A DNA stretch of 63,867 bases, filler included, from Basidiobolus ranarum (GCA_040143965.1; 35 parts of 35 records of this genome joined end to end with filler, not necessarily neighbours in it); one strand, 5' to 3'. Positions 38,444-39,452 are shown, counted from the whole stretch's first letter. Program-made: numbers and translations. Notes: a model not told the origin generated them from the sequence alone.

Positions 38444-39452
38444 ACACACCTACACCATCTGTGTACATCATGCCTCTAAACTTCATTGCCTTGCTTTTTC
38501 CTTTTCATTGTCTTTGGTGTGAGGTCAATAACGGTTCTCCATACTGCTTCTTTATCCAAGTGGCTGATGACAGAATTCTCCAAGATTTGAGTATTTAAAA
38601 TGTATGTATCCATTGTCATGTAGGATAGTATGAAGCCTCTCCTTAACGGAAAGCAGTTGAATGGCTTGTTTTGGAGAGCTTCACACATGCTTGACAGTCT
38701 GACATACGCCTTTATATACTTGAGAGGGTTGCTTTTGCAGTCATAATAGATTGACTCTTTTGCAAATCGATAATCTGTCATATATGAGCCAAAAAGACTA
38801 TGGATCATATCCAAATCGTTTGAGGAGAGAAACTCTTTAAGTATATCTTCAATATTTCTTGACGAAATAGCCAGCTTGACCTTCTTTATATGCTCTGTTA
38901 TTGTCTTTATGGCTGCCCTAACCTCTTTCTTGCTTCCCCCATTCTTCTTCATTTCGCTTTCCAGCGCCCTGATTCTTTCGTTCTTCTTCAAGAGCAAGTC
39001 AAGAAACATTCTAACTCTGTTTTCGAATTGAAGGTTGACCCCGTTCCGATAAGCAGTGACAATTTTTGCCACTTTATAAGAGGCTATCTGATGAGCATAC
39101 TTCAAGTTGACTGGTTCGTAAGAACAGCACTGAAAGTACTTATCCCGATACTCGAGTATTAAATCTTTGTAGGCTCTTGATTCTGTCAAAGATTTCTATT
39201 TGTCTGGTTTGTAGTTATTGAGGAGTGACAAAAAAACTTCTCTAAAAAAGCCAACATTAATGAAATCCTCCAAAAGAAACGTAGAATTATGTTCCAGTTC
39301 ATGAGTAATGATGTACTTCAAAAGGAAAACGTATGTGACACAAGGGTATGAACATTAGCTACAAGTGACATGAGTTGTGGAACATATTGTGGCTTCCACC
39401 CAATACTAGCGATTGAGCTTGTGACTGCTATAGACTTTAGAGGTGGTTCCAT
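38444..39452 (-). pseudogene. Fanzor1-like (eukaryotic TnpB-related RNA-guided endonuclease family) gene, N-terminal half; disrupted and cut off before RuvC
   Basis: Reconstructed MEPPLKSIAVTSSIASIGWKPQYVPQLMSLVANVHTLVSHTFSF/LKYII...FFREVFLSLL...*...IASYKVAKIVTAYRN...SIYYDCKSNPLKYIKAY...FNCFPLRRGFILSYMTMDT...VW/KFRGMMYTDGVGV. The F.CFPLR..F...Y..iDT and F.G...TDGVGV motifs are characteristic of Fanzor1 as I recall them. Confidence 0.85.

Follow-up and report, generated by a model that had tools for sequence, protein, structure and literature searches.

The DNA analysed here, referred to below as the window, is a stretch of 63,867 bases from an assembly labelled Basidiobolus ranarum; it consists of 35 contigs of 1,721-1,734 bp each, arranged in order of length with N44-TTAATTAATTAA-N44 linkers between them. 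A single 1,725-bp contig (38444-40168) carries on its minus strand the first ~335 codons of a gene assigned by sequence to Fanzor1, a family of RNA-guided DNA endonucleases, and this fragment (38445-39452) is interrupted by two frameshifts and one in-frame stop codon within 1,008 nt. The readable gene stops at position 38444, which is the end of the contig. We consider the fragment to be very probably a Fanzor1 pseudogene, represented by its 5' half. The features of the locus, in the direction of the gene, are as follows, with related proteins identified by P numbers.

39453-40168, no strand assigned: 716 bp upstream of the ATG, without coding signal, shared repeat or recognisable element end.
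39321-39452, minus strand: N-terminal piece of 44 codons (MEPPLKS...SHTFSF) in frame -2, with the ATG at 39450-39452; supported by tblastn to relatives.
39319-39323, minus strand: lesion 1, a change from frame -2 to frame -1 in a T4 run, consistent with the loss of 1 nt.
39199-39321, minus strand: second coding piece (LKYIITHELEHNSTFLLEDFINVGFFREVFLSLLNNYKPDK) in frame -1, aligned to chain residues 549-599 of Parasitella parasitica Fanzor1 (PpFz1) and to sibling P0021.
39196-39198, minus strand: lesion 2, an in-frame TAG where relatives mostly have Gln and which the alignment to PDB entry 9cf0 crosses ungapped.
38479-39195, minus strand: main open piece of 239 aa, comprising the REC domain and the returning WED strands, in frame -1; matched to PDB 9cf0.
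38484-38510, minus strand: lesion 3, a change from frame -1 to frame -2 in an A-rich zone, located by tblastn.
38445-38504, minus strand: C-terminal piece (KGKSKAMKFRGMMYTDGVGV), the WED-RuvC linker, in frame -2; runs off the contig.
38344-38443, no strand assigned: artificial linker (N44-TTAATTAATTAA-N44); the adjoining contig ends at 38444.

The lesions were checked in translations of all three minus-strand frames and by base-level inspection of the junctions. Searches by tblastn with four relatives and three siblings carrying the same species label picked out three pieces, collinear and in frames -2, -1 and -2, and the four relatives matched no other contig of the window. The gene therefore uses two reading frames and not the three that had been proposed in an initial annotation of this DNA; the 237-aa open reading frame (ORF) given there is in fact 239 aa long (stop-to-stop, 38476-39195, minus strand). 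The same annotation had proposed a 1-nt loss in a T-run at ~39320, an in-frame TAG and a frameshift near 38500, all of which were recovered. At lesion 1, frame -2 stops after SHTFSF and frame -1 resumes with LKYIITHELE, the switch falling in the T4 run at 39320-39323; relatives are unbroken over this point and read HTF(A/S)FLKY(I)F, e.g. HTFAFLKYIF. The residue opposite the TAG is Gln in P0021, P0040, P0002 and P0004, and Ser in P0010. At lesion 3, homology is back in frame -2 within ~38484-38510, with the tblastn pieces of P0004 meeting at 38503/38504, and frame -2 then reads KAMKFRGMMYTDGVGV to the contig end, the counterpart in sibling P0040 being SMKFRGMMYTDGVGV. Introns were considered as an explanation for the shifts in frame and ruled out, since homologous residues abut at each junction with only 0-1 nt to spare.

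The N-terminal piece is identical to P0021 at 35 of its 44 residues and 70% identical to residues 1-44 of P0002 (tblastn, E 1.6e-14); the start Met is common to P0002, P0004, P0021 and the window copy. The main piece has 77% identity to Rhizopus arrhizus protein P0001 and 80% to P0021 and P0022, and the C-terminal piece matches P0040 at 20 of 28 residues and P0004 at 65% over 20 aa (tblastn).

Used alone in a search of PDB, the 239-aa ORF matched PpFz1 (9cf0) with an E value of 7.7e-49 (residues 6-232 to chain 600-826) and Spizellomyces punctatus Fanzor1 (SpuFz1; 8gkh) with an E value of 3.5e-9. A 293-aa read-through, in which the TAG was entered as X, matched 9cf0 at E 4e-56 (residues 7-285 to chain 549-826, ungapped at the X) and 8gkh at E 1.2e-9 (residues 41-284 to chain 477-709); an E value of 4e-56 to a solved Fanzor1 excludes chance. 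An AlphaFold2 model of the 239-aa ORF was helical, with a predicted local distance difference test score (pLDDT) of 70-91 over residues 61-180, and the only two Foldseek hits to this model at E <= 0.001 were PpFz chains (1.5e-7 and 5.8e-7). Judged by sequence and modelled fold, the fragment is a Fanzor1, in agreement with the initial annotation. The best match in the Protein Atlas, to phage proteins with a score of 0.85, was below a meaningful level and was discarded.

Fanzor1 proteins have two lobes: a REC lobe (WED and REC), which holds the initial nucleotides of the guide and clamps the duplex of the transposon-adjacent motif (TAM); and a NUC lobe (RuvC and TNB) that cuts. The WED-RuvC loop, R448 in PpFz1, initiates the R-loop (PMC11423790). 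The end of our match, at chain residue 826, falls in the part of PpFz1 that holds this loop residue. As homology ends at the WED-RuvC linker, the fragment encodes the WED/REC lobe only. Sibling P0040 runs on from ...MKFRGMMYTDGVGV for 47 further residues before reaching DPGRRD (RuvC-I), and by this comparison the window fragment ends 47 residues short of the RuvC-I Asp. Given that the contig ends at 38444, the missing RuvC half lies off the contig and has not been deleted from it.

What this missing half looks like can be seen in relatives. Full-length homologues lacking a RuvC domain, which the initial annotation had named as evidence that would count against a Fanzor, were not what was found: the alignment of the 713-aa relative P0010 to PpFz1, made up of two stretches (E 9.5e-158), spans almost the full length and puts vlidpgrrdll (DPGRRD), ylidefktssicptc (DEFKTS..CPxC) and rlwnrdmaatlnf (WNRDMAA) opposite the corresponding PpFz1 motifs, so that the motifs of the RuvC triad (DPG, DEF-TS and RD) are all present. 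A zinc ribbon, CP(S/T)C, follows DEF(K/R)TS in both P0010 and P0001; none of the three siblings extends that far. Pfam analysis of six relatives gave Cas12f1-like_TNB in two of them, with E values of 0.0011 and 0.0043 that were both below the cut-off. A further Pfam label, PF26935.1, is precomputed on most relatives (P0001-P0040) and was not reported by a local Pfam-A run on the six tested; it is possibly a newer Fanzor-specific model.

By analogy with characterised relatives, an intact member of this family would be ~600-700 aa long and the product of a DNA transposon, with a WED/REC lobe to hold the guide end of an omegaRNA and read a short TAM and a RuvC/TNB lobe to cut the DNA paired with the guide. 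Among the features expected of a Fanzor1 are a location within a eukaryotic DNA transposon (Mariner, MuDR, Helitron, Sola or IS4-like) and an omegaRNA encoded at, or overlapping, the 3' terminus of the gene or element. The window copy lacks an uninterrupted ORF of that length; with the WED/REC lobe only, two indels, a premature stop and the end of the contig, it cannot make a nuclease. There is also no omegaRNA region on its contig, the 3' end of the gene lying off it.

A number of observations weigh against the pseudogene reading. Pfam analysis of four pieces of the fragment gave nothing significant (best E 0.16); the N-terminal 89-aa ORF alone had no PDB hits, and the C-terminal 20 aa alone had only chance Sel1-repeat hits in PDB (E > 1). 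As these end pieces have no meaningful PDB match of their own, their assignment relies on tblastn to relatives. The AlphaFold2 model is mediocre, with a mean pLDDT of 63.5 and values below 50 over residues 180-239, and the catalytic half, omegaRNA and element ends are outside the contig. Finally, assembly error is conceivable for two of the three lesions, which are sited in homopolymer or A-rich runs. If so, the gene may be intact in the organism, with its three interruptions arising from errors of assembly or sequencing, or from programmed recoding; such an origin would account for lesions 1 and 3 being in the T4 run and in A4/A5 runs respectively, and for the two frame shifts cancelling each other (-2, -1, -2). 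We consider this very improbable. Lesion 2 is a base substitution and not a homopolymer error, all three siblings with the same species label are likewise truncated models, and elsewhere in the assembly there are clean ORFs of 576 aa (a copia gag-pol that takes up its whole contig), 501 aa and 359 aa, showing that indel errors are not rife. No recoding signal is known for Fanzor, which counts further against an intact gene. The lesions are probably real, and within the limits of the assembly the evidence bears out the earlier suggestion of a dead copy. Of the 61 positions that are >=90% conserved, four differ in the window copy; across the 37 rows compared, such deviations range from 0 to 24%, placing this copy mid-range.

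The host label of the assembly was consistent with genes on sister contigs. The 501-aa ORF contains a fungal transcription-factor domain and matches, with 100% identity, a protein that NCBI labels Basidiobolus ranarum, all seven of its hits having the same label; an ORF of the STIMATE family on another contig is 99% identical to a further protein so labelled. The Fanzor ORF, too, has its closest relatives under the label Basidiobolus ranarum: P0021 (247 aa, 80%), P0022 (165 aa, 80%) and P0040 (204 aa), all of them short or internally deleted models by comparison with the ~600-700 aa expected. A maximum-likelihood tree of 37 rows, unrooted and constructed after leaving out four rows aligned over <130 aa (P0040 among them), placed the window copy, P0021 and P0022 in one clade with 99/96 support. 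Features expected of a Fanzor1 were therefore found in the form of a eukaryotic host, shown by the fungal genes on sister contigs, and of multiple copies per genome. By sequence comparison, the Basidiobolus ranarum-labelled assembly is host to a small, diverged Fanzor1 family with copies ~80% identical, and the proposal in the initial annotation that this genome harbours a Fanzor family is supported. With copies ~20% apart at the protein level and short siblings, it looks like an old, decaying family. A metagenome scan for relatives with DNA context gave one locus, 28% identical and covering the RuvC/TNB part only; a scan of viral contigs confirmed none of 102 candidate stretches and gave no sign of a viral vector.

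The named relatives from outside Basidiobolus all belong to the Mucorales: Rhizopus arrhizus/delemar (71-77% over 201 aa), R. microsporus (58%), Gilbertella (~50%) and Helicostylum (35%). In the tree, the Basidiobolus-labelled clade lies within a clade of 22 rows (99/96) together with one R. delemar/arrhizus family and one further pair, and the window copy is separated by a path of 0.31 changes per site from the Rhizopus copies and of 0.25 from its siblings. For comparison, the host STIMATE-domain ORF had no non-self representative above 54% identity among 1.84 billion, the best named one being 53%. Nine of its non-self hits were looked up, and the six that are named are from Zoopagomycota or chytrids and none from Mucorales; they include Dispira (53%), Tieghemiomyces (49%) and a Conidiobolus cluster (46%). 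This one gene is the whole of the host baseline for the identity comparison.

Given these distances, we tentatively favour, at a little short of an even call, a reading in which a Fanzor1 transposon crossed phyla between the Rhizopus lineage (Mucoromycota) and Basidiobolus (Zoopagomycota) and then diversified into a small family; the most likely source of the family, or the partner with which it was shared, would be the Rhizopus lineage, through horizontal transfer of the transposon. The topology of the tree was not accepted as stand-alone proof of transfer, as the tree is unrooted; the argument is instead made from the distances and the single host-gene baseline. The lack of a root is also what leaves room for vertical inheritance from a common ancestor of Zoopagomycota and Mucoromycota, with the gene kept in Basidiobolus and one Rhizopus lineage and lost elsewhere: the Basidiobolus copies form one side of a branch on which the root could fall, and several Fanzor1 families per genome have been described in Mucorales, with four in R. 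oryzae and ten in Mucor circinelloides (PMC3627910). However, the N-terminal halves of Fanzor proteins are described in the same source as highly variable, and taken together with 71-77% identity to Rhizopus against a host baseline of <=53%, this makes vertical descent across phyla seem unlikely. The path lengths to the Rhizopus copies and to the siblings (0.31 against 0.25), the ceiling of 54% for the STIMATE ORF, and the mere 58% identity to copies from R. microsporus, a member of the same genus, also argue against descent, which we regard as distinctly improbable even though the baseline for judging it is a single host gene.

The likeness to Rhizopus would also be expected if this contig and the siblings came from a Mucorales contaminant, a Rhizopus-like mould from a lineage with long-known Fanzor1, that was co-assembled with the host. 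Every named non-self relative being from Mucorales and the adjoining R. delemar/arrhizus family are in keeping with this, as are the Zoopagomycota and chytrid affinities of the host STIMATE gene; in addition, no repeat of the Fanzor1 contig recurs in the other 34, and the contig's observed/expected CpG ratio (CpG o/e) is 0.57, versus a median of 0.066 for the resident repeats. Against contamination, relatives are at most 80% identical and the Rhizopus copies at most 77%, so that the source would need to be an unsampled species; the siblings are on contigs of 6.3-9.8 kb, comparable to the ~10-kb contigs of the host transcription-factor paralogues; and both the GC content (0.377) and the CpG o/e of the Fanzor1 contig are inside the range of host-gene contigs. 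None of these points is decisive, and we consider contamination unlikely. Composition as a test of contamination was set aside as non-discriminating, since the Fanzor1 contig is no outlier among the host-gene contigs. Returning to transfer between phyla, a window copy without the extreme CpG loss of the resident repeats fits a late arrival or an escape from repeat methylation.

Of the characterised systems, PpFz1 (PDB 9cf0-9cf3; Xu et al., Cell 2024, PMC11423790) is from the same protein family and aligns over 279 residues, ungapped across the stop. By comparison the window copy is a broken fragment, and the proteins of its family start ~130 residues later (in chain numbering, with the offset of the maltose-binding protein tag estimated). 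Relative P0010 lacks the stretch at chain 994-1089 that holds the ~96-residue FRI (cyclophilin-binding) insertion of PpFz1; the PpFz1 paper reports FRI only from Parasitella and Rhizopus (PMC11423790). SpuFz1 (PDB 8gkh; Nature 2023, PMC10432273) has been proven biochemically to be an omegaRNA-guided DNA endonuclease, and the mechanism of the family is defined by it; its REC lobe is homologous to the window fragment, although identity in the fold alignment is only ~23% and its host is a chytrid. The Fanzor1 copies of Rhizopus oryzae/delemar/arrhizus (ROr-1 to ROr-4, PMC3627910) are the closest named outside relatives and belong to the same 22-row clade, but the host of the window copy is from a different phylum (Zoopagomycota versus Mucoromycota). 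ROr-4 is described as MuDR-like, with terminal inverted repeats (TIRs) and 9-bp target-site duplications (TSDs) (PMC3627910), whereas no ends can be defined for the window copy. The ancestral RNA-guided RuvC architecture is shared with bacterial TnpB (IS200/IS605, IS607) and Cas12 transitively, through the full-length relatives; the window fragment itself has no direct sequence or Pfam match to these proteins, its REC lobe being Fanzor1-specific.

Fanzor1 in early-diverging fungi was catalogued in 2013, when Bao and Jurka described four families in Rhizopus oryzae, ten in Mucor circinelloides and three in Phycomyces, some of them MuDR-like (PMC3627910); Jiang et al. (2023) listed 3,655 Fanzors (PMC10530073), and biochemistry and structures followed in 2023-2024. 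A dead, contig-cut REC-lobe fragment of so well known a family matters little by itself. It does, however, flag a Fanzor1 family in a Basidiobolus-labelled genome; should this family include an intact sibling, that protein would be closely akin to the already studied PpFz1. A full-text literature search for Fanzor and Basidiobolus together, with supplementary tables outside its reach, found no paper. The Fanzor literature proposes movement between phyla in no more than general terms (PMC10432273), and the identity of 71-77% to Rhizopus against a host baseline of <=53% makes a concrete, testable case for it.

The remainder of the Fanzor1 contig held little else. Pfam analysis of five ORFs in the 716 bp 5' of the ATG gave no significant match (best E 0.015, below the cut-off), and no transposase ORF, TIR or TSD was definable in this stretch; its sole inverted repeat is imperfect and 17 nt long (39701-39768). 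An Rfam scan of the contig matched no family. By blastn against the other 34 contigs, only matches of <=20 nt were obtained (E 0.3), with no common repeat; most of those contigs are repeats related to one another, unlike the Fanzor1 contig.

CpG o/e was sharply bimodal over the 35 contigs, separating a repeat class from a non-repeat class (Mann-Whitney p 0.003). The 23 contigs of repeats or transposable elements (>=20% of their span matching other contigs) had a median of 0.066, and the 12 non-repeat contigs a median of 0.554; the Fanzor1 contig (0.57) goes with the host-gene class. Examples are 36618-38343 and 9169-10900 against 56681-58402 and 34792-36517. In the 21 contigs with CpG o/e <0.15 there was an excess of TpG/CpA (mean 1.37), and CpG loss confined to repeats looks like methylation-driven decay or a CpG-directed mutational defence. 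Contigs 3669-5402 and 51214-52936 are strongly depleted of CpG (o/e 0.018 and 0.18 respectively) without a repeat shared in the window, and may be repeats with partners outside it or another class of methylated DNA. The 576-aa ORF on the minus strand of 21990-23719 belongs to a copia-type long terminal repeat (LTR) retrotransposon, with gag, Pol beta-barrel, pre-integrase and integrase core over the whole contig; the CpG o/e of this contig is 0.24, above that of the decayed repeat contigs, so the copy may be a younger or still active one.

A 68-bp segment at 1517-1584, in contig 1-1734, belongs to a set found in six contigs at 77-91% identity, its copies lying in 29308-31036, 11001-12732, 9169-10900, 62147-63867 and 20159-21889; it is possibly an LTR or the end of a miniature inverted-repeat transposable element (MITE) of one repeat family. 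A tRNA gene at 55041-55113 (plus strand; RF00005, 49.8 bits) was the sole Rfam hit at gathering level in the window. The transcription factor ORF at 56898-58400 (plus strand) is of the fungal Zn2Cys6 type and has at least six paralogues with 70-78% identity under the same species label; the presence of several of these together on one contig of ~10.4 kb suggests tandem expansion.
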